Below are positions 6,226 through 17,201 of a stretch of DNA of 64,000 nt, in pieces; the first letter of the stretch is position 1, and every line of letters begins with the position of its first letter. The DNA comes from Candidatus Woesearchaeota archaeon (lineage in GTDB: Archaea; Nanobdellota; Nanobdellia; SCGC-AAA011-G17; PNOQ01): the NCBI GenBank assembly GCA_964344655.1, contig CAYFOF010000001.1, positions 3,907 to 67,906 on the forward strand. Reading direction: 5' to 3'. The notes under the pieces are model-generated. The model did not search any database, was not told where the DNA came from, and was given only the letters and a program-made list of their open reading frames with translations. Both the position numbers and the translations under genes were made by a program.

Positions 6226-6300
6226 GGGTGCGTAGCTCAGCTTGGATAGAGCACTAGCCTTCTAAGCTAGGGGTCGAGGGTTCAAATCCCTTCGCGCCCG
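6226..6300 (+). tRNA. tRNA-Arg (anticodon TCT)
   Basis: Manual cloverleaf: acceptor GGGTGCG/CGCGCCC, anticodon stem CTAGC/GCTAG, loop CTTCTAA, T-loop TTCAAAT, discriminator G; CCA not encoded. Confidence 0.8.
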
Positions 6301-6308
6301 CTCATTTT

Positions 6309-6380
6309 GCGTGCGTAGCCAAGCGGCTAAGGCAAGAGGCTGCAACCCTCTGATCCCCGGTTCGAGTCCGGGCGTGCGCT
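6309..6380 (+). tRNA. tRNA-Cys (anticodon GCA)
   Basis: Acceptor GCGTGCG/CGTGCGC, anticodon stem AGAGG/CCTCT, loop CTGCAAC, T-arm CCCGG-TTCGAGT-CCGGG, discriminator U as expected for Cys. Confidence 0.75.
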
Positions 6381-6407: not shown

Positions 6408-6704
6408 TTGTTTAAAATTCTGATTTTTATGGGAGAAAATAATCAAGAAAGTTTTTTAGAAAATCATAGAAGAATTGAAAATCTTATCGGAAAGGATAAA
6501 AAGGATTTTATTCCAATTTGGGGCATTTGGAATTATCATAGAAGAGCTTGGCCAATTATAAAGAATGAGCCCATTGTAGAGAATGAAAATGATGATCTTT
6601 ATTTTGGATATGATGGTTTGTTTTTTCTAACACATATTGCATATTGCATACCCGCTATTGCCTCATCAGCATATATAATCCTAAAGCATTATGTAAATAA
6701 TTAA
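6408..6704 (+). CDS. hypothetical protein
   Basis: ORF only; no recognisable motif. Confidence 0.3.
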   Translation: MFKILIFMGENNQESFLENHRRIENLIGKDKKDFIPIWGIWNYHRRAWPIIKNEPIVENENDDLYFGYDGLFFLTHIAYCIPAIASSAYIILKHYVNN

Positions 6705-7594
6705 ACTCTAAAGGTTCCACGTTTTTTTAATTTTTTATTATTTTTATTTTTTCTTCTGTAGATAAAAAATCCTACTGCAGCAATTATTACTGCAAATATT
6801 AAATAAGTCCCAGTTCTATCTGGAGCTGTGTTTCCTAAAGAATCTATGAAATACGTTGGATCGTAATAAACTAATTTTTCTATAGTTCTTCTTTCATTTG
6901 TAGAATCAGTATAGTGTAAGATTACTTTTATGTTCCCTTCTGAAGGTGTTGCTTCAAAATCTGCAGTTGTATATTCGTTTGAATCTAAATCACCAACAAT
7001 ATTTCTATTTGCTCCTTTAACAACTATATTTTCTTGTTTTGGGATTTCTACTGTTAATGCTTCAATATCTTGATTTCCAGTATTTAGAATTTCAAAAACT
7101 AAACTCCTATCTTTTATTATGTGGTTATCTACGTAAACTTCAAAGTCGGTTCTTCCGTCTTCTAGTTCGATATCAAATTTTTTGGAAATGTAGCTTCCGA
7201 GTCCAAGATTATCTCTTTCTCTGTATCTTAGTTCTACTTCATATGTTCCTTCTAAAGCATCAGGGTCTATTCTTACTTTGTAAGGAATATTCCAGTTTGA
7301 ATTAAACCCATGTCCAGCGTATGTATTTGCTTCCATTACTTTAATTGAACTTCCACTATCTAAGAAAAATGGATATTCTAAAACTAATTCAACAATAGCA
7401 CCACTATCACAACTTCCTAGCCCTCTAAGTTGGAATAACATTTCTACATACTCTCCTGCTATCGCTGGGTGAGGATCTTGATTTACCAAATCTGCAGCCA
7501 ATTCACAATTATAAAAGTCATTTGCAGAAGTATTGTTTATTAGAAATATAAATAAAACAAATACAAAAATTAATTTTATAAATCGCCCCTCCAT
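6701..7594 (-). CDS. secreted CARDB-like surface protein with C-terminal TM helix and basic tail
   Basis: N-terminal signal peptide; beta-rich repeats with GEYVE...GTYEVEL pattern; C-terminus LIFAVIIAAVGFFIYRRKNK. Confidence 0.5.
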   Translation of the reverse strand: MEGRFIKLIFVFVLFIFLINNTSANDFYNCELAADLVNQDPHPAIAGEYVEMLFQLRGLGSCDSGAIVELVLEYPFFLDSGSSIKVMEANTYAGHGFNSNWNIPYKVRIDPDALEGTYEVELRYRERDNLGLGSYISKKFDIELEDGRTDFEVYVDNHIIKDRSLVFEILNTGNQDIEALTVEIPKQENIVVKGANRNIVGDLDSNEYTTADFEATPSEGNIKVILHYTDSTNERRTIEKLVYYDPTYFIDSLGNTAPDRTGTYLIFAVIIAAVGFFIYRRKNKNNKKLKKRGTFRV

Positions 7595-7632
7595 GAATTA
7601 AATTTTATTTTCTCCATATATAAATGTTTTTA

Positions 7633-8841
7633 CTATTCACTTCTTAACGCATCTACGGGGTTTGTTTTTGCGGCCCTTCTTGCAGGTAATGCTCCAGATA
7701 TTGCGCCAGTAATTCCTGCGAATGCAATTAATCCTACAAATAAATATATTGAAAAGTGAGGTTGTAAGAAACTCCATCCAAGATCTTTTAGTATTAAACC
7801 ACCAATACTAGAAATCCCCCAACCCAGTGCACAACCCAATACTCCAGCAACAACACCTAAAAATGAACTTTCAAATAAGAATATATCAAATATTTCTATG
7901 TTTTTTGCTCCTACGGCTTTTAATATTCCAATCTCTTTATATCTTTCTAGAACTGAAGTTATCATTGTATTTGCTGTGTTTATTGTTGAAACTAAAACAG
8001 AAATTAATGCTATTAGTACTATAAATCCCACAATAACATTTAGAGCACCTGAAAATTGTTCTATTAATTCATCAAATGATTGTACTGTGAAATCTTCTTT
8101 TCCCTCTTCTACATCTCTTGATTTTCTTAGGCTTTTTTCTATGTCATCTACAACTCTTTGTATGTTATCTAGGTCTACTCTTGCAAAAATTTGTATGTAA
8201 GAATTTTCTTCTGGGAATAGTTCTTCGTAGTAATCATTTGTAACATAAATTTGAGAGTCATCTTGAGGGTTTCCAATTTCTTCTAAAAATCCGATTATTC
8301 TTAGATCTTGACCGTTTACTTCTATTTTATCATTTACTTTGAAGGGTTTTGGGAAAATTTTGTTTGGGATTAAATAATTGTATCCAAGAAGTATTTTTCC
8401 ATCATCTCCTGGGCTTAAGATTCTTCCTTCTTTAGCACCAACATTAAATGAATCTAAAACCATATCTTTTTTTGGATCGTAGGAAATTAAGAAAACAAAT
8501 TTTATATCGCTATTTTGTTTTATTTGTACTGCGTTAAAATATAATCCTGTTGCATCATAAACTCCGGGTGTTTTTGATACGGAATCTATGTCTGATTGGT
8601 TTAATACTACACTTGTTGAAAGGTCTGCCACTCCTCCTGCGGTTTTTGCCATGATTAAAACTTTGTCTGCAGATGACGAAGTTGAGAGTTCATCTATGTA
8701 ATCATATAATCCTAAACCAAAACTTATGAAGATAAATATTGTTGCAATTCCAACTAAAATAGAGAAAATTGTTAAAAAACTTCTACCTTTGTTTTTCTTT
8801 AGATTTTTTAGTGAGTATTTCACTCCTTCTCTACTTATCAT
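7633..8841 (-). CDS. ABC transporter permease, FtsX/MacB family
   Basis: N-terminal TM, large extracytoplasmic domain, three C-terminal TM helices typical of the FtsX fold. Confidence 0.7.
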   Translation of the reverse strand: MISREGVKYSLKNLKKNKGRSFLTIFSILVGIATIFIFISFGLGLYDYIDELSTSSSADKVLIMAKTAGGVADLSTSVVLNQSDIDSVSKTPGVYDATGLYFNAVQIKQNSDIKFVFLISYDPKKDMVLDSFNVGAKEGRILSPGDDGKILLGYNYLIPNKIFPKPFKVNDKIEVNGQDLRIIGFLEEIGNPQDDSQIYVTNDYYEELFPEENSYIQIFARVDLDNIQRVVDDIEKSLRKSRDVEEGKEDFTVQSFDELIEQFSGALNVIVGFIVLIALISVLVSTINTANTMITSVLERYKEIGILKAVGAKNIEIFDIFLFESSFLGVVAGVLGCALGWGISSIGGLILKDLGWSFLQPHFSIYLFVGLIAFAGITGAISGALPARRAAKTNPVDALRSE

Positions 8842-10061
8842 CCTCTTAGGGCCTCCACAGGATTTTGACTTGCCGCCTTCATTGCAGGAATTATTCCAGC
8901 TATTCCTCCAATTAAGAAGCTTCCAAATAAAGCTAGGAATATTAATCCGAAGTCTATGCTAAATCCTAAATCTGTTCCTATGAAATTATTAATTCCTTGT
9001 ATTCCAATTAAACCAATTATTATCCCCAGGAATGCTCCGGCTGCTCCTCCAATTAATCCTAGTAAGCTTGATTCTACAAAAAATTGTGCAAATATGTGTT
9101 CGTTTCTTGCACCGACAGATTTTGTTACTCCGATTTCTTTTCTTCTCTCCATTACAGATGTTGTCATTGTATTTATTATTCCGATTAAACCAATGAAAAT
9201 AGAAATTGAGGCAACTATAACTATGAATATTTGAACTCCACTTAGAACGCTATTTACAGTAGCTAGAGAGGATTCAGGTGTACTTACTTCGAAATTTTCT
9301 TCTCCTAATTTTACATCTCTTCTTTGTCTTAAAAGTTTTTCAATGTCTGTTTTTGTTTTGTTTATTTCTTTTTTATTATTTGGTTCTACTATGATTAAAT
9401 CTGCAACTTCTCCAAAATTAAATATATCATCCATGTCATCTTCTAGCATTAGTATAACATTATCCATAATTAAACTGCCTTGTTTTTCCATTATACCAAT
9501 TACTTCGAATTTTTCTCCGCTAACTAAAATAGATTTCCCTACGGTTATTGGTTTTCCTCCCCAATCTTCTTCTTTATCGTAATAATTAAATCCTAGAACT
9601 ACTTTTCCAGTGTCGGATTCTTTTAGCATTCTTCCAAATAAAGGTCCTTGATCAAGTTGAGTGTATATTAGATCAAGATCTTCCTTATTTTGAGCCATAC
9701 TTCCGAGATACCTAAATTGAATATTATCATTAAATTCTATTTGTCCGGACCTTATGTTTCTGACTACTGTATTTTCTACGCTGCTTAATCTTTCAATTGC
9801 TCTTGCATCATCTCTTGTTATTGGATCTACAACACTGCTTCCAGGAGGGCCAAATCCAGAGATTCCTCCAGCTTGGACAGTTATTAATTCGTTAGCATTT
9901 ATTCCAAATTGACTTGCTACTGCGAGTTGTAAACCATTTCCTAAGGATATTAAAGAAACTACGGCAGTTACACCAATTACGATTCCTAACAAAGTTAACC
10001 AAGATCTAATTCCTCTACTTTTTAGATTCTTTAAAGCTAAAACAAAGAAGTCTTTAATCAT
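8838..10061 (-). CDS. ABC transporter permease, FtsX/MacB family (second copy)
   Basis: Same architecture as the neighbouring permease; 4-bp overlaps imply an operon. Confidence 0.7.
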   Translation of the reverse strand: MIKDFFVLALKNLKSRGIRSWLTLLGIVIGVTAVVSLISLGNGLQLAVASQFGINANELITVQAGGISGFGPPGSSVVDPITRDDARAIERLSSVENTVVRNIRSGQIEFNDNIQFRYLGSMAQNKEDLDLIYTQLDQGPLFGRMLKESDTGKVVLGFNYYDKEEDWGGKPITVGKSILVSGEKFEVIGIMEKQGSLIMDNVILMLEDDMDDIFNFGEVADLIIVEPNNKKEINKTKTDIEKLLRQRRDVKLGEENFEVSTPESSLATVNSVLSGVQIFIVIVASISIFIGLIGIINTMTTSVMERRKEIGVTKSVGARNEHIFAQFFVESSLLGLIGGAAGAFLGIIIGLIGIQGINNFIGTDLGFSIDFGLIFLALFGSFLIGGIAGIIPAMKAASQNPVEALRG

Positions 10062-10782
10062 TCTTTTTCTTACCTCTGCCGTTTGGTTTTTTGGTTATTT
10101 TTTCTATTTTCCCGTCTCTTAACCAATAAACAATATCAGGGTAATTTTTTATTAAATCAGTATCATGAGTTACCATAACAATGGTTTTGCCTTTTTTGTG
10201 TAAATCTTCTAGGAAATCCATTACGTTTTCTCCAGTTTTTGTATCTAGATTTCCTGTTGGTTCATCTGCAAGAATAACTTCTGGAGAATTTGATAATGCT
10301 CTTGCAATTGCTACTCTTTGTTGTTGGCCACCAGAAAGTTCGTTTGGGGCATGATGTTTTCTTTCTTTTAAATCTACTAATTGCATTAATTTGTCTGCTC
10401 TAAAATTTCTCTCTCCGGTGTCGTACCCTTGGAATATCATAGGAATCATTACATTTTCCTTTGCAGTTAAATTATTTATTAGATTAAATGATTGGAAGAT
10501 AAATCCTATTTTTTGTCCACGTATTTGAGCTAGATCAGATTCGCTTAAAGTTGAAATATCTTGATTGTCTAAGAGAATTTTCCCTCTTGTTGGTACGTCT
10601 AAGGATCCAATTAAATTCATCATTGTTGATTTTCCGGAGCCAGAAGGTCCGAGAATTGCAACGAAATCTCCCTCTCTTATTTGTAATGAAACTCCATCTA
10701 CTGCCCTAACAATGTTGTGGCCCATGTGATAGTGTTTGTAGACGTTTTTTAATTCAATAATCACTCTTCTTTCTTCTTTCAT
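10054..10782 (-). CDS. ABC transporter ATP-binding protein (MacB/LolD-like)
   Basis: Walker [10 protein letters not shown], signature [15 protein letters not shown], Walker [12 protein letters not shown]. Confidence 0.85.
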
Positions 10783-11843
10783 TGTTTTATGTTTCCTTTT
10801 GTACTAAATTGTATTCCTTTATCTTTCTTTTTTTGAGAAATATAATCGTAAAATTCTTTGTAAGTCATTACTTTTGCTCCATCATTCTTTACATGTTGTA
10901 AAAATAAATCTAAGTCATCTAATTTTGCTTGTGTGTCGAATGTATTTGGGTGCAGTTGTAGGATGAAAAGATTATCTTCTTCATATTCATCTATCCATTC
11001 TTCATAAGGAGTGTGTAAAAAATTAATAGAGTGCCAGCCATAAACGTAAATTGGATCATAACCTCTTGGAGTAATTATTACATCTGAATCGAAATAGGGT
11101 TTTGAAACATGAGTGTTTCCGATTAATTTGAATCCTGCCTTTCTAACATTTTCATATTGTTCCGTGGTCCAATGATTTCCTGGAGGAAAGTAAGATGTAA
11201 ATTGCATATTGAAAATTGTTTCAAGCTCTCTTTTTCCATTGTAAACATTAAACCAGACTTCTTCATATTTGGGGCAATGATATTCATTTCTGCAATGATT
11301 GTATCCGTGCATACCAAGTTCATAACCTTCTTCTAACAGAGATTTTAAATAATCAATCATTTCTTGATCTCCACTTATATGCATATTCTCTTTTGTTGAT
11401 TCATCAAAAATATAAGGAGTTACACCGAGAGTTGCTTTGAATCCGTATTTGCTTATAATATCTGTTACAGGAATGAACTTATCTAAGGTATATCCATACT
11501 TTTCATAGTATTCTACGTCTTCCATGTTCCAATAATCATCTAATTCAATTATCATTATTTTTTCATCTATCTCTATTGAGGTTGATTTGTCTAGGGCATA
11601 TATTGCATATCTTGTTCCAGAATAGATTACAACTAAAATTAATAAAATAATTAATAATGTTTTGAATATTTGTTTATTTTTATTTTTTGTAAATTTGGCC
11701 ACTTTTCTCCAAAACTCTACATCTGCTTTTTTTCTTACTATAAATAACAGAATTACTAATATTATTATTAATGCAAAAATATAACCTAGAACATCATAAT
11801 ACAATTCACTTAATGTTAAATTTCCTGGAAGTAATCCTACCAT
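10779..11843 (-). CDS. membrane-anchored polysaccharide deacetylase-like (CE4/NodB-like) protein
   Basis: N-terminal TM; ELDDYW and LGMHGYNH resemble NodB motifs 1 and 2; first gene of the ABC operon. Confidence 0.35.
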   Translation of the reverse strand: MVGLLPGNLTLSELYYDVLGYIFALIIILVILLFIVRKKADVEFWRKVAKFTKNKNKQIFKTLLIILLILVVIYSGTRYAIYALDKSTSIEIDEKIMIIELDDYWNMEDVEYYEKYGYTLDKFIPVTDIISKYGFKATLGVTPYIFDESTKENMHISGDQEMIDYLKSLLEEGYELGMHGYNHCRNEYHCPKYEEVWFNVYNGKRELETIFNMQFTSYFPPGNHWTTEQYENVRKAGFKLIGNTHVSKPYFDSDVIITPRGYDPIYVYGWHSINFLHTPYEEWIDEYEEDNLFILQLHPNTFDTQAKLDDLDLFLQHVKNDGAKVMTYKEFYDYISQKKKDKGIQFSTKGNIKQ

Positions 11844-11946
11844 AATTTAATTTGAAAATCTTAATTTAAAAAATTAACTAAAAATAATATTCTTTTTTGA
11901 TGAATTGTGTGATTTTAGAAACCTTTTTTAATGATATTCAGTTATT

Positions 11947-12575
11947 TTGTGTATGATTTTTAATGTTATATCCAGAAAAGAAAATCTTCTTGAAAAATTT
12001 TATGAAAAATCTATGCAAGAATTAAAAGAATTTTTTGGGATAAATTGGATATATAACAAGCCCAAGGTTTTTTTGGTTCCTAACAGGAAAACTATCAATA
12101 TGTTAAAAGATGGCGATTCTCCGGCGTGGAGTGTTGGTTGGGTTAATGGAAAGGACGTTTACTTATTGGATAAAAATAGTTTTGAAAAAGAAAGTTCTCA
12201 TGCCTATTCTGATGAAAAATATTTTTTTCTTATGAAACATGAATTAGCTCACGCATATACATGATATTGACTAAAAATGTTAGGCCTCCTGTTTGGTTAT
12301 GGGAGGGACTAGCCGTTTATATTTCTGGCCAAATAAAAAATAAAAAAATTCCCGATAAATTTGGAAAATTTTTAGATTATTATGATAAACATGATGCCAT
12401 CGTTTATAGTGAAGCTTGTTTTGCTGTAAAAAATTTGGTGGAAAAATATGGAAAAGAAAAACTTCTTAATTTAGTTAAGGCAACAAAAGAATATAATTCG
12501 AATTCTGGATTTAAAAAGAAATTCAAAGAAATATATGGTTTTAACTTAAATTATAAAAATATATTAAAAAAATAA
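11947..12575 (+). pseudogene. gluzincin-type zinc metallopeptidase split into two ORFs (11947..12264 and 12261..12575) sharing an ATGA junction
   Basis: HELAH ends ORF1; the conserved Glu ligand (WEGLAVY) lies about 18 residues later in ORF2 in a different frame. Confidence 0.35.
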
Positions 12576-12583
12576 GAAAAAAG

Positions 12584-14272
12584 TTATTTCCTTTTCTTAA
12601 AGAAAAGAGAAAGGAAATAGATTATTATAACGATTAAAGCTATATCGCCAACGATCCAGAATACTGTTTTTGCTGTTTCACTTTCGAAAACATTTCCAAC
12701 AGTCCATCCCGTAGGCAGGAATACTGTTCCGCTAGTTTCTTCGTTAGATTCACCAGCTAAACTATCTGTTGATTCTGTTTCTTCAGTTTCTTCAGATTCT
12801 GAAACTAAACATCCATTAACAGTTATTTTTTCTACGTAATTTTTTTGTTCACCCAAATCATCGTAGTAAAGAGTGAATGTTAATGCATATTCTTTGTTTT
12901 TCATTCCTTCTGGAATAGTAGCTTCTAGATATACAGTGTTATCATCATCTCGATCATCGTATCTTTCTAAATCGAATGTGTCAGAGAATACATCAATTCC
13001 AAGTTCTGAATTGTACATTCTTACTTTTACTGCATCGTCATCTTTATCTCCAACGTTTTGTACATCAACTTCTGCGTTGAAAAGATATCCACATGAAACT
13101 ACAGATGGATTAACCAAAATACTTTCAATTATTACTTTGTGATCTGGTCTTTCAACATCTATTTCTTCTATATCTTCTATACATTGGTGATCATCGTTTC
13201 TGTATTCGTAAGCTTTAACGTGAACTTCGTATGTTCCGTCATCCCAATCATCTTCAACTTCTATTTCAAATGAAAAGGTTTCCACTTCATCTTCATCTAT
13301 ATCAGTTTTTGAGCTTTTTTCACTCTCTAACTTTCTATCATCTCCACGTTCTGTTACCCAAACTTCTACGATTACATCATCGATATCTTCGTTATCAGTA
13401 TTTTCAATTTCAACATCTATTTGGATTATATCTCCTTGAGCAAATTCATCGTCATTTATATCGAATTCTTCAATTCTTAATTGACCTACATCGCAAAGAT
13501 CGGATTCATCCAAAATATCGAAATCTTTTACTTTAACATCACGTTGATTTAATTCATCATCAGTTTTGTAAGCTTTTGTGTATAGATTGTAATTGTGATC
13601 TGGATCTAAATTATCATCTACATCTAATGAAACTGAAAATGTTTCTTCTATTCCATCATCAATTGTTTGATCGTAGGAATCTGCAAAAGCAACAATTTGT
13701 TTTAAGTTTTCATCGTATAACCAAACTTCTACTCTTACATCAGTTAGATCTGCGGATCCATCATTTTCAACATCTAGATCAATTTCTAGGATATTTCCTG
13801 CTCTCATTTGATCTGGAATATCGTCATATGAATCTGTATCAATGATATTTAAGTCACCAACACTTCCCACATATTGATCTACGAATACTGTAGCAAGAAT
13901 TGTTGTTTGTGTTGTGTTTTCAGTTATAGTAATTGTTGATTCATATTCTCCCATTCTTGTAGAAAGAGGAACATTTACTGTTGCAGTTGTATCTGCTGAA
14001 TCATTTGCAGGCACATCTACAGTACTTGGATCAAACGTTACTGTTCCATCAAACAAATATGTGCTTATGAATGCATTAGTGTATGTAAAATCACTTGCAG
14101 AAAGCACGGTACCAGTTACAGCTGTTGCATCTGGATTTGTTAATGTTATTGTGGCATTTCCTGATTCGCCTTGACTTACAGTTCCAAAATCAACTGGATT
14201 TGCACTCAAGTCAGCGTTTGCTAGCGTAGCTGATAGAATCAAAAACATTGCCATAAATATTAATTTTTTCAT
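12584..14272 (-). CDS. acidic secreted surface protein with three CARDB-like repeats and a C-terminal TM plus KKRK tail
   Basis: Signal peptide MKKLIFMAMFLILSATLANA; repeated V-EVW/V-V-Y modules; very D/E-rich; C-terminus IALIVIIIYFLSLFFKKRK. Confidence 0.6.
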   Translation of the reverse strand: MKKLIFMAMFLILSATLANADLSANPVDFGTVSQGESGNATITLTNPDATAVTGTVLSASDFTYTNAFISTYLFDGTVTFDPSTVDVPANDSADTTATVNVPLSTRMGEYESTITITENTTQTTILATVFVDQYVGSVGDLNIIDTDSYDDIPDQMRAGNILEIDLDVENDGSADLTDVRVEVWLYDENLKQIVAFADSYDQTIDDGIEETFSVSLDVDDNLDPDHNYNLYTKAYKTDDELNQRDVKVKDFDILDESDLCDVGQLRIEEFDINDDEFAQGDIIQIDVEIENTDNEDIDDVIVEVWVTERGDDRKLESEKSSKTDIDEDEVETFSFEIEVEDDWDDGTYEVHVKAYEYRNDDHQCIEDIEEIDVERPDHKVIIESILVNPSVVSCGYLFNAEVDVQNVGDKDDDAVKVRMYNSELGIDVFSDTFDLERYDDRDDDNTVYLEATIPEGMKNKEYALTFTLYYDDLGEQKNYVEKITVNGCLVSESEETEETESTDSLAGESNEETSGTVFLPTGWTVGNVFESETAKTVFWIVGDIALIVIIIYFLSLFFKKRK

Positions 14273-14355: not shown

Positions 14356-14886
14356 TTGAAATTTAGTGGAATTATGAAATATTACTGGAGTTTAAGTTTT
14401 CGTTTGTTTATTGCAGTTATTTTTACTGTTTTTTATGATGTTTTTTACTCAATTATTTATCCCTTGACAGTTTATCCAGCTTATTTTTTTACTAATTTGT
14501 TTTATGGTGCTTATTTAGTTGGAAATTCTATTTTTGTTTCTGGGAATGTTGTGAATATTATCCCTGCTTGTGTTGCGGGAATTGCTTATTCATTATTATT
14601 GTTTTTAATATTATTTACTAAAGGGATTAGTTTTGGAAAAGGTTTGAAAATGTTTGTTGTTGGAAGTTTGTTAATTTTAGTTATGAATGTTTTACGTATT
14701 GATTTATTGATTTATGTTTTAGTTGAGTTTGGATCTGATTTATTTGATAAAGTGCATTTAGTATTTTGGAATTTTATTTCTGGGTTGTATGTTGCTTTTG
14801 TTTGGATATTTTTAGTTAAGAAGTTTAGAGTTTCTTCTATTCCTATTGTTTCAGATGTTAAGTATTTATATACTTCTATAAAGTAG
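14356..14886 (+). CDS. minimal exosortase/archaeosortase-family membrane protein (candidate transpeptidase)
   Basis: Polytopic membrane protein; PACVAGIAY resembles the catalytic ACSG(I/L)R Cys motif and NVLRI the conserved NxxR motif of EpsH/ArtA enzymes. Confidence 0.4.
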   Translation: MKFSGIMKYYWSLSFRLFIAVIFTVFYDVFYSIIYPLTVYPAYFFTNLFYGAYLVGNSIFVSGNVVNIIPACVAGIAYSLLLFLILFTKGISFGKGLKMFVVGSLLILVMNVLRIDLLIYVLVEFGSDLFDKVHLVFWNFISGLYVAFVWIFLVKKFRVSSIPIVSDVKYLYTSIK

Positions 14887-14932: not shown

Positions 14933-15874
14933 ATGTATAATTCATTATATGATGCTTTGGAAAGGATTTATCCTGAATGGAATGGAAAAAACATTCCAGA
15001 AGATTTCAGGAAAGGAATGTCCAATCTAGAGAATTTACTAAAAAATTTAGAAGAATTACATGAAATGCCCTTGATTATTGAAGAGGGATTAACTCCCTTT
15101 GAAATTTCTAATATTTTAGGATTTGGAAGAAAAGATGCAAAAGAAAAGGGGAATTTAAGATCATATGATACAGTCCATAGGGAAGTGAAAAATGGTATAA
15201 ATTGGATTTTAACTCCTGCCAGAATTATTACATTAGCATTAGAATATAAACAACAAGTAGCAGATCCTGTAGTGGCGCAAGATTTATTATTAGATTCTAT
15301 TGATTTTGCTTTGGGAGTTTATCAAAATCCTGATTTAGTTTTAGAAAGTACTGGGCAATTTAGAGAAAGAATATTAGAGAAAAATTCAATGATGTTGTTT
15401 CACCATCATTCATTTAATACAGATGGTGTTTCTATGCATGCTTATCAACCTAGAAATTCACGTTCAACAGTAGAAACATTATTATCTTTAACTGATGGGA
15501 ATCCAGTCACTTTTATTGCAATAGCAAATGGGGGTGTTCCGGCAGGGATGGACGTTTTTTTAAGGTATAGGGATGAAATTTTATCTCCTGATGGCCTTAC
15601 TTTTTACTCAACAAAACTATCTTGCTATAAAGACGGGAGAGTAGGGAAAAAAAGACCAAAAATAAAACCTTGGGAAATCAGAAATTTACATGAAATCACT
15701 GGTGCGAAACCAATTGTTCTTTTTGATGAAGATGTTAATTCTGGTGAAACATTGGCTAGGGCTAGAGATTTTTTTAGGAAATACTTTCCAGAGAATAAAA
15801 TAATTGTTGAGACAAATATGGGTAGTCCGGACGAGGTAGATTATTTTTCTAAATCTAAAAGATTGTCTATGTAA
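14933..15874 (+). CDS. protein with C-terminal type I phosphoribosyltransferase domain and uncharacterised N-terminal domain
   Basis: PRPP-binding motif IVLFDEDVNSGETL; N-terminal ~150 aa without recognisable motif. Confidence 0.5.
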   Translation: MYNSLYDALERIYPEWNGKNIPEDFRKGMSNLENLLKNLEELHEMPLIIEEGLTPFEISNILGFGRKDAKEKGNLRSYDTVHREVKNGINWILTPARIITLALEYKQQVADPVVAQDLLLDSIDFALGVYQNPDLVLESTGQFRERILEKNSMMLFHHHSFNTDGVSMHAYQPRNSRSTVETLLSLTDGNPVTFIAIANGGVPAGMDVFLRYRDEILSPDGLTFYSTKLSCYKDGRVGKKRPKIKPWEIRNLHEITGAKPIVLFDEDVNSGETLARARDFFRKYFPENKIIVETNMGSPDEVDYFSKSKRLSM

Positions 15875-16322
15875 GGGAATAAATTCCTAAAGAAGCTAGT
15901 GTTACTAATATTCCTGCGATCACTACTCCTAAAGCAATTGTTATGTAAGACTTTTTTCTATTTAATTTGAATAACCAGGCTGCTAAAGATCCAGTGTATG
16001 CTCCAGTTCCGGGAAGAGGAATAGCTACTAGTAAAAGCAAGGCAGGATATTCCCATTTTGTTCCAATTCTGTGTTCGATTTTTCTTCTTGTCCTGTTAAT
16101 TATTTTTGAGAATAAAATTCTGTAAAACTTTTTTGTCATAAATTTTTCATGTAAAAAATCTAGGAATAAAAATATAATTGGAATTATTAAGATATTTGCT
16201 AAAACACATAACATGAATATTACTCCAATTGGTGCTCCAGAAGACATTGCTAATGGAATTCCACCACGTAGTTCAGAAATTGGTAGAGCACTTAGTATTA
16301 TTCCGTAAATTAAATTGTTCAT
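15867..16322 (-). CDS. small multidrug export-like membrane protein (COG2426 family)
   Basis: ISELRGGIPLA motif and 4-TM topology typical of the family. Confidence 0.45.
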   Translation of the reverse strand: MNNLIYGIILSALPISELRGGIPLAMSSGAPIGVIFMLCVLANILIIPIIFLFLDFLHEKFMTKKFYRILFSKIINRTRRKIEHRIGTKWEYPALLLLVAIPLPGTGAYTGSLAAWLFKLNRKKSYITIALGVVIAGILVTLASLGIYSLT

Positions 16323-16361: not shown

Positions 16362-17201
16362 TTATTTATCAGAACCTTGGAAAACTAAAAGATCTTCTGT
16401 TGTTAGTTTTTTCTTTTTCTTTAATTTTTCTTCAACTTCTTTTGTTTTTTCTTCAAGTATTTTTGTGTTTTCTTTTTTAACTTTGAAATCCTGTTCTATT
16501 TTCATGCCTTTAGCGTCTTTTAATTTTTCTTTTAGTTCAGAATTTATTTTTGAGAATTTATTTTTTGAATCTATGAAATTTTCAAATGCTTTTTCTTGTT
16601 TTTTCTTTAAATCATTAATTTGTTTTGTTAGTTTTCTAAATTCTTCATAGTTTGGTTTGTTATCTTTTATTTCTTTTTGTAATTTTTTATGACATTCTTC
16701 TGCTTTATCTTTTGCTTCTTTGATTTTGTCTGAAACTTCTTTTAATTCTTTGAATAATCCTTGGACGTCTCCAGCTTCAGCCATTTGTTTTTTAAGATGT
16801 CTTATTTGAGTCATAATTTTCTTTTCTTTTTCAAAAGATAATGCTTCAGTTTGAATAGAATAATCTAGAGCTTCAATTTGTTTTGAAATTTCTCCAGGAT
16901 TGAATGTGATTTTTTTATCTTTCAATATTTTTTGTTTTTCAGAATTTAATTTTTTGAATTTGGATATTAACTCTTTTACTTTTTTATTGTATTTATCTCT
17001 TTCAGCTTTTAATTTTTGAACTTCTTTATTGTCAGTGTCTTTAGAAAACTTAATTTTTTTAATTTGAGAAATTAATTTAGAAACTTCTTTTTTTAGACTT
17101 TCTTTTTCTGTAAACCACTCCTCTTTTTCTGCATTTAATTTGTTGAGTGTGTTTTTCAGTTCAGTAATTCCCTTTTTCAGTTCTTTTTCCGATGTCATCA
17201 T
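16362..17201 (-). CDS. K/E-rich coiled-coil protein
   Basis: Long heptad-like charged sequence. Confidence 0.4.
   Translation of the reverse strand: MMTSEKELKKGITELKNTLNKLNAEKEEWFTEKESLKKEVSKLISQIKKIKFSKDTDNKEVQKLKAERDKYNKKVKELISKFKKLNSEKQKILKDKKITFNPGEISKQIEALDYSIQTEALSFEKEKKIMTQIRHLKKQMAEAGDVQGLFKELKEVSDKIKEAKDKAEECHKKLQKEIKDNKPNYEEFRKLTKQINDLKKKQEKAFENFIDSKNKFSKINSELKEKLKDAKGMKIEQDFKVKKENTKILEEKTKEVEEKLKKKKKLTTEDLLVFQGSDK

Follow-up and report, generated by a model that had tools for sequence, protein, structure and literature searches.

The locus and its five genes

The subject of this analysis is a cluster of five genes on the minus strand of a 64,000-nucleotide stretch of DNA, here called the window, from a Candidatus Woesearchaeota archaeon (assembly GCA_964344655.1, contig CAYFOF010000001.1, positions 3,907 to 67,906 of the forward strand). 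In the order of reading these encode a deacetylase-like protein (DAC), an ATP-binding cassette (ABC) ATPase (designated ATP), two permeases (PERM1 and PERM2) and an anchored surface protein (SURF); two promoter-like elements, P1 and P2, precede DAC and SURF respectively. The cluster reads as follows.

11863..11880, minus strand: P1, promoter-like element tAGTTAATTTTTTAAATT, about 20 nucleotides (nt) upstream of the DAC start codon
10779..11843, minus strand: DAC, 354 amino acids (aa), putative membrane-tethered CE4/DUF2334 deacetylase
10054..10782, minus strand: ATP, 242 aa, ABC ATPase of the MacB/LolD/FtsE (SalX) type
8838..10061, minus strand: PERM1, 407 aa, MacB-type permease
7633..8841, minus strand: PERM2, 402 aa, second MacB-type permease, a paralogue of PERM1
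7617..7631, minus strand: P2, element AAAAACATTTATATA resembling a B recognition element (BRE) and TATA box, in the PERM2-SURF gap and ending 22 nt before the SURF ATG
6701..7594, minus strand: SURF, 297 aa, with signal peptide, two immunoglobulin (Ig)-like domains, C-terminal transmembrane helix and basic tail

The five open reading frames (ORFs) are real genes and not chance ORFs, as shown by the Pfam domain matches of DAC, ATP and both permeases and by hundreds of homologues. Their coordinates, the overlaps of 4, 8 and 4 nt at the DAC/ATP, ATP/PERM1 and PERM1/PERM2 junctions and the 38-nt gap between PERM2 and SURF (7595-7632) are all as given in a preliminary description of this DNA, which took the whole for a five-gene envelope operon. 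The DAC stop overlaps the ATP start codon as ATGA. Since at least ten further co-directional gene pairs within the window also overlap by 4-8 nt, such overlaps are weak evidence of functional coupling in so compact a genome. The G+C content of the region is ~31%. The source is a DPANN archaeon of the Woese-/Pacearchaeota type, as indicated by the flanking genes for a PACE-CTERM protein and a pacearchaeosortase and by the homologues, which all come from metagenome-assembled genomes (MAGs) of Woese-, Pace- and Nanoarchaeota.

A MacB-type transporter with two paralogous permeases

The ATP protein matches the Pfam family ABC_tran (125.5 bits, 2.9e-36) and has intact motifs: Walker A (GPSGSGKS, residue 45), the signature LSGGQ (residue 149), Walker B (ILADEP, with its Glu) and the H-loop (VTHD, residue 204). 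Its best NCBIfam similarities are to the MacB nucleotide-binding domain, LolD and FtsE at 227-237 bits, each under the equivalog cut-off (for FtsE, 227 against 264.85). Both permeases contain the MacB core domain and the FtsX domain well above the Pfam cut-offs (27 bits for MacB_PCD, PF12704; 25.5 bits for FtsX, PF02687): PERM1 scores 84 bits (2.3e-23, residues 20-242) and 73.3 bits (2.3e-20) respectively, and PERM2 56.9 bits (4.6e-15, residues 21-235) and 70.0 bits (2.5e-19). By hydropathy each has a first transmembrane segment and three C-terminal ones, with an extracytoplasmic domain of ~215 residues between the first and second. The two are 33% identical and are presumed to form a heterodimer.

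Among solved structures PERM1 is closest to MacB (5lil, 2.2e-35) and PERM2 to YtrF (9o9x, 2.7e-22) and MacB (5nik, 4.4e-22); Spr0695 is also among the best matches of the permeases (1.6e-25), and those to LolC, LolE, LolF and FtsX are far weaker, LolC matching PERM1 at merely 3e-7. The specific family models agree: lolCE (TIGR02212) gives 48.7 and 55.2 bits for the permeases against a cut-off of 362, the LolC/LolE exception models give 21-35 bits against 439-540, and the FtsX models 34-44 bits against 225-255. Since MacB, Spr0695 and YtrF are matched and the Lol and FtsX models fall far below their cut-offs, the earlier label of a MacB-type, mechanotransmission-class transporter is correct, and the sequences identify a type VII ABC system of one ATPase gene and two paralogous permease genes. 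The likeness to LolCDE, proposed at the same time, holds for the two-paralogue architecture only. In LolCDE, too, a single ATPase gene accompanies two for paralogous permeases, as expected of a heterodimeric type VII transporter, and there is a dedicated extracytoplasmic partner, but the sequence similarity is weak, a LolA/LolB-like protein and an outer membrane are lacking here, and the permease duplication is an independent one. FtsEX differs in that FtsX has a small extracytoplasmic domain that works with a coiled-coil or hydrolase partner, whereas the permeases here have the full MacB_PCD.

The MacAB-type pumps of monoderm bacteria (Spr0693-0695 of S. pneumoniae, YknXYZ and YtrEF of B. subtilis) likewise combine a LolD/MacB-type ATPase, separate from the permease, with an FtsX-fold permease of four helices that carries the MacB core domain, and they too work at a single membrane with a membrane-anchored extracytoplasmic accessory protein encoded alongside. 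The accessory protein of those pumps, however, is an N-terminally anchored HlyD/MFP adaptor, unlike the C-terminally anchored tandem Ig-like protein found here; their permease is a homodimer as opposed to the presumed heterodimer; and their hosts are monoderm bacteria rather than an archaeon that has an S-layer but lacks peptidoglycan. In family searches no protein in or beside the cluster matched the HlyD/MFP adaptors to which MacA belongs.

In three related loci (L022 7271-9484, L033 13577-15799 and L067 13328-15565) the orthologous ATPase gene is interrupted at Walker A by an intein of ~1.4-1.5 kb that carries a LAGLIDADG homing endonuclease (Intein_splicing 5.9e-29, LAGLIDADG_3 2.3e-18).

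The SURF protein

Between its signal peptide and its C-terminal transmembrane helix, which is followed by a basic tail of ~17 residues, SURF consists of two beta-sandwich domains (about residues 31-145 and 151-244), with conservation much stronger in the membrane-proximal one (mean pairwise identity 66%) than in the distal one (46%). It was originally called an anchored CARDB surface protein. The anchoring is borne out, but the CARDB match (PF07705) lies under the Pfam cut-off (18.8 vs 22.7 bits), and just 7 of 34 members of the SURF family match CARDB at E<0.01. No lipobox is evident in SURF and neither a coiled coil nor a hydrolase-binding feature was found in it; its fold is an Ig sandwich and not a LolA-like one.

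SURF is probably not a substrate of the pacearchaeosortase encoded nearby, as the LPTG...FWILGD signal is absent and the tail is longer than that of the PACE-CTERM proteins. The family arCOG02884 ('Ig-like membrane protein of a putative secretion system') was rejected as the home of SURF because it is COG4743/pfam07760, with 2-4 transmembrane helices. The VARTIG Ig-domain module of Thermococcales (PMC8416519) was also checked and has no ABC link.

Conservation of a four-gene unit in DPANN archaea

A SURF profile retrieved 80 species-representative loci, all of them from DPANN archaea, and the window proteins were compared with these by tblastn within the retrieved flanks. PERM2 is found in 73 of the 80 loci, distinct PERM1 orthologues in 67, and the full set of ATP, PERM1 and PERM2 in 60, across which ATP identity is 60-85%. 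Of the seven loci that lack a permease, six break off less than 800 bp from SURF on one side. The 73 loci fall into two layouts: 24 have the co-directional order ATP>PERM1>PERM2>SURF seen in the window, and in 49 SURF is convergent to PERM2-PERM1-ATP. The permease gene beside SURF is always PERM2, and the adjacency has outlasted an inversion and many small insertions; it is this linkage, in 73 of 80 loci, that ties the anchored surface protein to the transporter.

No fifth conserved gene emerged when all ORFs in the 80 loci were clustered, no other family being present in more than 23 loci; the next commonest neighbours look, by sequence inspection alone, like genes for translation and information processing. 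The conserved unit is thus four genes: ATP, PERM1, PERM2 and SURF. A co-oriented gene for a GNAT acetyltransferase of ~150 aa lies between PERM1 and PERM2 in 11 of the 67 loci (e.g. L027 4590-5045, L046 8294-8737, L057 8279-8722); other insertions in this gap are heterogeneous and include 23S-IVP/bAvd-like genes and methyltransferases. The duplicated-permease variant seems to be restricted to MAGs of Woese-, Pace- and Nanoarchaeota.

A related operon across the archaea

Searched against a library of 1.84 billion proteins, the SURF profile matches 1,713 cluster representatives at E<=1e-3. The distant relatives are of 420-480 aa, with three Ig-like domains, and are called "COG1361 S-layer family protein" in their sources. 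The profile matches one such protein, P0315, at E 2.8e-41, and BLASTP aligns it with SURF at 1e-17 and 28% identity, spanning both domains, the transmembrane helix and the tail (a second BLASTP value is 2e-14). SURF and the longer COG1361 relatives share the signal peptide, the Ig domains, an IxGxLDxxxYTxAxF motif, the C-terminal transmembrane helix and the basic tail.

In all five distant relatives examined, the COG1361 gene lies between genes for an ABC ATPase and a single permease with MacB_PCD and FtsX domains, mostly with 4-nt overlaps. The sources are Methanoperedens, a Methanosarcinales MAG, a Woesearchaeote and two long contigs, one of 1.8 Mb that carries an archaellin gene and one of 1.05 Mb. 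The ATPase of this operon is ~54% identical to ATP of the window and its single permease is ~29% identical to both PERM1 and PERM2; this equidistance indicates that the duplication took place independently of that of LolC and LolE. Judged by these comparisons the window module is a DPANN variant of a pan-archaeal three-gene ATPase-COG1361-permease module: its ATPase, permeases and Ig-like partner are homologous to those of the operon, but the permease has apparently been duplicated (two genes vs one), the partner shortened (two Ig domains in 297 aa vs three in 420-480 aa) and its gene relocated, from between ATPase and permease to the end of the cluster or the opposite strand, under a promoter of its own.

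Beside the pan-archaeal operon there is in three of the five cases a divergent gene pair, which encodes a winged helix-turn-helix (wHTH) protein and a six-transmembrane protein of ~225 aa that has no family assignment. The pairs are the following.

L122 3141-4078: HTH_45/Sso10a-like wHTH gene and six-transmembrane gene
L123 1094-2052: the same pair
L124 4240-5187: the same pair

The wHTH protein is 58-64% identical among the three loci, and the pair may constitute a dedicated sensor and regulator. Among the DPANN loci and in the window the pair was found only in L023.

The "S-layer" label is called into question by reports of COG1361 genes in Thermoplasma and Ferroplasma, which lack an S-layer (PMC10354927). 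Makarova et al. (2015; PMC5898192) list SalXY-type ABC genes and 'S-layer proteins', in passing, among membrane-remodelling loci. The literature search found no study of this module and no experimental work on any archaeal type VII ABC system.

The deacetylase gene as a recent insertion

In Pfam DAC matches DUF2334 (58.9 bits, 6.9e-16; cut-off 26) and Polysacc_deac_1 (26 bits; cut-off 23.1). Its AlphaFold2 model (predicted local distance difference test score, pLDDT, 83; predicted template modelling score, pTM, 0.82) has CE4 deacetylases as its top Foldseek matches in the PDB (3qbu, 3rxz, 7ax7, 6h8n, 4l1g and 8t0j; target template modelling score 0.56-0.68), including HP0310, the M. smegmatis enzyme 3rxz, Xyl-CE4, PdaC, BC1960 and ArnD. 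DAC and the CE4 enzymes share the Asp-Asp, HxxxH and LxH motifs, and D102 and D103 (in IELDDYW), H179 and H183 (in MHGYNHC), H298 (in QLHPN) and YFPPGN are invariant in 28 DAC homologues, an assignment to CE4 made by pattern and not by structural superposition. To the enzymes of the CE4/NodB DUF2334 subgroup, such as HP0310/PgdA of H. pylori and PdaC of B. subtilis, DAC is related by fold (Foldseek E 5e-8 to 1e-6, score 0.63-0.68 on the target) but has an identity of just 12-16%, and it departs from them in a two-helix N-terminal tether, in YFPPGN in place of RxPY and in an invariant Cys pair (C184 and C190). Its transmembrane segments (residues 11-44 and 55-84), with the K/R-rich loop between them, predict that the catalytic domain is outside the cell. 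The fold and motifs thus pass the check that the preliminary description set for this protein, a CE4 fold, and support its proposal of a membrane-tethered CE4-like deacetylase, as a predicted extracellular CE4-type enzyme with a NodB-type (beta/alpha) barrel fold.

Conservation of gene order in relatives, the other check set by the preliminary description, holds for ATP, PERM1, PERM2 and SURF and fails for DAC, which the tblastn comparison found in none of the 80 SURF-bearing loci. The closest relatives (L002, L004, L005, L008-L010, L012 and L013) have the order sortase, PACE-CTERM, ATP, PERM1, PERM2, SURF, with LeuRS further downstream where the flank reaches, i.e. the gene order of the window minus DAC. 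DAC immediately precedes ATP in only three other places: a JGI contig in which SURF has 87% identity with the window protein, L082 (DAC identity 82%) and L088 (79%), where DAC overlaps the ATPase start codon (ATGA) as it does in the window. The L087 contig breaks off shortly after a DAC of 78% identity, which is immediately preceded by the PACE-CTERM gene. The linkage of DAC to the ABC genes is therefore confined to contigs whose DAC is at least 78% identical to the window copy, and in the contexts examined DAC homologues of 40-68% identity never adjoin a MacB-type ABC system.

The company that the more distant homologues keep is of another kind. In eight distinct contexts a GH3 gene with an N-terminal membrane anchor lies immediately 3' of the DAC homologue; DAC orthologues followed by GH3 (PF00933), often overlapping, are seen in other DPANN lineages (L083 8001-10093, L086 6001-8092, L089, L091, L099, L112 and L114). 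DAC and GH3 are probably a recurrent pair of ectoenzymes acting on glycans of the N-acetylglucosamine (GlcNAc) type, the processing of such glycans by DAC being suggested by the membrane-anchored glycosidase that is its usual companion elsewhere. There is no GH3 gene in the window.

Promoter-like elements and predicted transcription units

In L001-L014 the PACE-CTERM gene ends in an oligo-T tract, behind which, at 21-23 nt from the ATP start codon, there is a conserved element AGTTA(A/G)nTTTATATA. In L087 an AGTTA-TATA element just past the oligo-T tract following the PACE-CTERM gene is upstream of DAC. Because the element that precedes ATP in the relatives precedes DAC in the window and in L087, DAC appears to have been inserted between the module promoter and ATP. 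By these comparisons DAC is a recent lineage-specific insertion and not part of the conserved core, and it is predicted to be co-transcribed with the ABC genes.

The second element has the form cAAAAAnnTTTATATA; it comes right behind the PERM2 stop and ends 22-30 nt ahead of the SURF ATG, both in the window and in L001-L014, and the flanking intergenic bases vary. From this conservation and position P2 is predicted to be SURF's own BRE/TATA promoter, giving probably a leaderless or short-leader mRNA; an own promoter is consistent with the independent orientation of SURF in other lineages. The five genes are contiguous and co-oriented, as had been said, but since SURF has a conserved promoter of its own the sequence argues for two transcription units, P1>DAC-ATP-PERM1-PERM2 and P2>SURF, rather than one strict five-gene operon.

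Proposed mechanism and alternatives

The gene content, folds, motifs, topology, synteny and promoters described above point to a four-gene type VII ABC machine with SURF as its extracytoplasmic partner, a lineage variant of the pan-archaeal module in which DAC is a late insertion. We regard this account as moderately probable. SURF is cast as the partner on the strength of gene linkage and of analogy with the characterised type VII ABC systems, every one of which acts through an extracytoplasmic partner such as MacA, LolA, EnvC or TesA (PMC12646458, PMC5985334). For complex formation, stoichiometry, direction of transport and substrate we infer the following. The ATPase, probably in two copies, and the PERM1-PERM2 heterodimer would make up the core of the machine, in which ATP binding and hydrolysis in the cytoplasm would be converted to movements of the permease ectodomains. 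SURF would dock on the permeases by its membrane-proximal domain and transmembrane helix and serve as adaptor, the part played in the bacterial systems by MacA/YknX, LolA, EnvC or TesA. The ectodomain movements would then push or extract an amphipathic substrate (a peptide, a lipid-like or a hydrophobic compound) from the outer leaflet or the space beneath the S-layer. By analogy, the machine most likely serves to expel or extract amphipathic compounds, and the GNAT genes between PERM1 and PERM2 together with the wHTH/six-transmembrane pair give weak hints of an inducible or detoxification role.

Several points weigh against this account. SURF resembles none of the known type VII partners, its fold being a generic Ig sandwich, and what speaks for a complex with the permeases is genomic linkage. 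The efflux or detoxification role rests on the analogy with MacB, YknXYZ and YtrF and on weak contextual hints, and the DPANN variant is without the regulator pair of the pan-archaeal operon. Finally, DAC lies behind the module promoter and overlaps ATP by 4 nt, and may truly have been recruited to the machine in this single lineage. A precedent would be YbbAP-TesA of E. coli (PMC12646458), a type VII ABC system with a neighbouring extracytoplasmic hydrolase that the DAC-ABC arrangement superficially resembles. The two differ in that TesA is an SGNH esterase and DAC a CE4 metallo-deacetylase, that YbbP is a fused double permease, and that the DAC link is found in one narrow lineage.

A broader proposal would find in the COG1361 Ig-like proteins the partners that archaeal type VII ABC machines have so far seemed to lack, and assign both to an archaea-wide envelope device whose job has no bacterial counterpart. 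We hold this to be doubtful. Candidate jobs would be the servicing of the space between membrane and S-layer and, for the duplicated-permease DPANN version, the extraction or exchange of lipids or surface molecules at host contact; specificity would in that case reside in the variable distal Ig domain of SURF.

It is unlikely that the system is a regulator of the FtsEX kind that moves no substrate, in which ATP-driven ectodomain motion would switch SURF or a SURF-recruited enzyme, here possibly DAC, in S-layer or envelope remodelling or in division. The type VII class does include pure mechanotransducers (FtsEX-EnvC and FtsEX-PcsB/CwlO/RipC) and the ABC-hydrolase system YbbAP-TesA (PMC12646458, PMC7668044), SalXY-type ABC and 'S-layer proteins' have been tied to membrane remodelling by Makarova et al. 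(PMC5898192), the module adjoins PACE-CTERM S-layer and pacearchaeosortase genes in the close relatives of the window, and DAC is an ectoenzyme inserted under the module promoter. But that S-layer/sortase neighbourhood is limited to the closest relatives (L002-L013) and DAC is missing from every one of the 80 loci; MacB, Spr0695 and YtrF are much better matches to the permeases than FtsX is, and the permeases have the full MacB_PCD instead of the small FtsX domain; and the coiled coil or hydrolase-binding feature of such a partner is missing from SURF.

The dedicated five-gene system of the preliminary description, in which DAC would modify a surface polymer or adhesin and the ABC transporter would export or display the product with the CARDB protein, is improbable. 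Contiguity, common orientation and the 4-8 nt overlaps speak for it, as do the position of DAC downstream of the module promoter, overlapping the ATPase start in the window and in L088, and the predicted extracytoplasmic location of both the DAC catalytic domain and SURF. However, the other four genes stay together through 80 loci from which DAC is absent, the DAC homologues of lower identity are found in eight contexts with GH3 and never by a MacB-type ABC system, a conserved promoter of its own precedes SURF, which in most lineages is oriented convergently to the ABC genes, and the locus contains no glycosyltransferase or polymerase genes. We know of no polysaccharide export by type VII ABC transporters. 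No evidence was found for a processing and export module of this kind, and the synteny of DAC largely refutes it.

A Lol-like extractor, whose permease pair would pull lipids or lipid-anchored proteins from the membrane and pass them to SURF, as part of lipid or lipoprotein trafficking in lipid-auxotrophic, host-attached DPANN archaea, is quite improbable. It has in its favor the LolCDE architecture of two paralogous permeases with one ATPase, the extraction of hydrophobic molecules from the outer leaflet by YbbAP and LolCDE (PMC12646458, PMC8333309) and the seeming restriction of the duplicated-permease variant to Woese-, Pace- and Nanoarchaeota MAGs; yet the LolC/E models reach 48-55 bits against cut-offs of 362-540, SURF has neither a LolA-like fold nor an evident lipobox, and the three-gene relative of the module is found in methanogen-related archaea, which are free-living and synthesise their lipids themselves. 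Least probable of all is that SURF is simply a structural S-layer or surface protein whose place by the ABC genes is inherited gene order: its longer relatives are named for the S-layer, the generic Ig sandwich is common in surface proteins and a separate bona fide PACE-CTERM S-layer gene is nearby in the window, but the adjacency persists in 73 of 80 loci despite inversion and insertions, the gene stands between ATPase and permease with overlapping codons in five of five distant relatives, COG1361 genes occur in the S-layer-less Thermoplasma and Ferroplasma (PMC10354927), and SURF lacks the PACE-CTERM sorting signal.

Neighbouring genes

On either side of the cluster the window carries the following features.

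6226-6380, plus strand: tRNA-Arg(TCT) and tRNA-Cys(GCA)
6408-6704, plus strand: 98-aa ORF after the tRNAs, with no family match; its 3' end overlaps the SURF stop convergently
11947..12264 and 12261..12575, plus strand: Peptidase_MA-like (HExxH) gene in two ORFs, with a 1-nt frameshift right after HELAH
12584-14272, minus strand: PACE-CTERM putative S-layer protein (NF033506, 152 bits)
14356-14886, plus strand: pacearchaeosortase (NF033505, 133 bits), adjoining the PACE-CTERM gene
14933-15874, plus strand: weak phosphoribosyltransferase-like ORF, flanking the sortase
15867-16322, minus strand: small multidrug-export-family protein (PF06695), flanking the sortase
16362-17201, minus strand: DUF7121 protein, flanking the sortase

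Ten PACE-CTERM orthologues have in common a C-terminal signal of (F/Y)LPTG, ~15-20 residues, FW(I/V)(L/I)GD, a transmembrane helix and four K/R residues, the LPTG of which is similar to the bacterial sortase motif. The split Peptidase_MA-like gene could be a pseudogene or an assembly error; the gene is whole in L073 (1838-2449) and is lacking at the equivalent position in the closest relatives, so that a second gene has been inserted here, between PACE-CTERM and DAC. The PF06695 and DUF7121 genes are syntenic with a contig of the closest relative. In the 87%-identical relative the interval between SURF and LeuRS is filled by APH, methyltransferase, choline kinase and APH genes instead of the tRNAs and the 98-aa ORF.

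Implications

Contiguity and overlapping codons in compact genomes can make a recent insertion, here DAC, look like an integral member of an operon. A MacB-type transporter is in itself unsurprising in this setting, and the interest lies in the archaea-wide partner family as a handle, for which the database label 'S-layer family protein' is here corrected. The bacterial type VII systems are each defined by their partner (MacA, LolA, EnvC/PcsB or TesA), and the candidate partner that is linked in archaea has a different fold. Putative partners of the SURF type are tightly linked across archaeal lineages and persist in DPANN archaea, whose genomes are very small, and they offer a testable entry to archaeal mechanotransmission at an envelope with neither peptidoglycan nor outer membrane.

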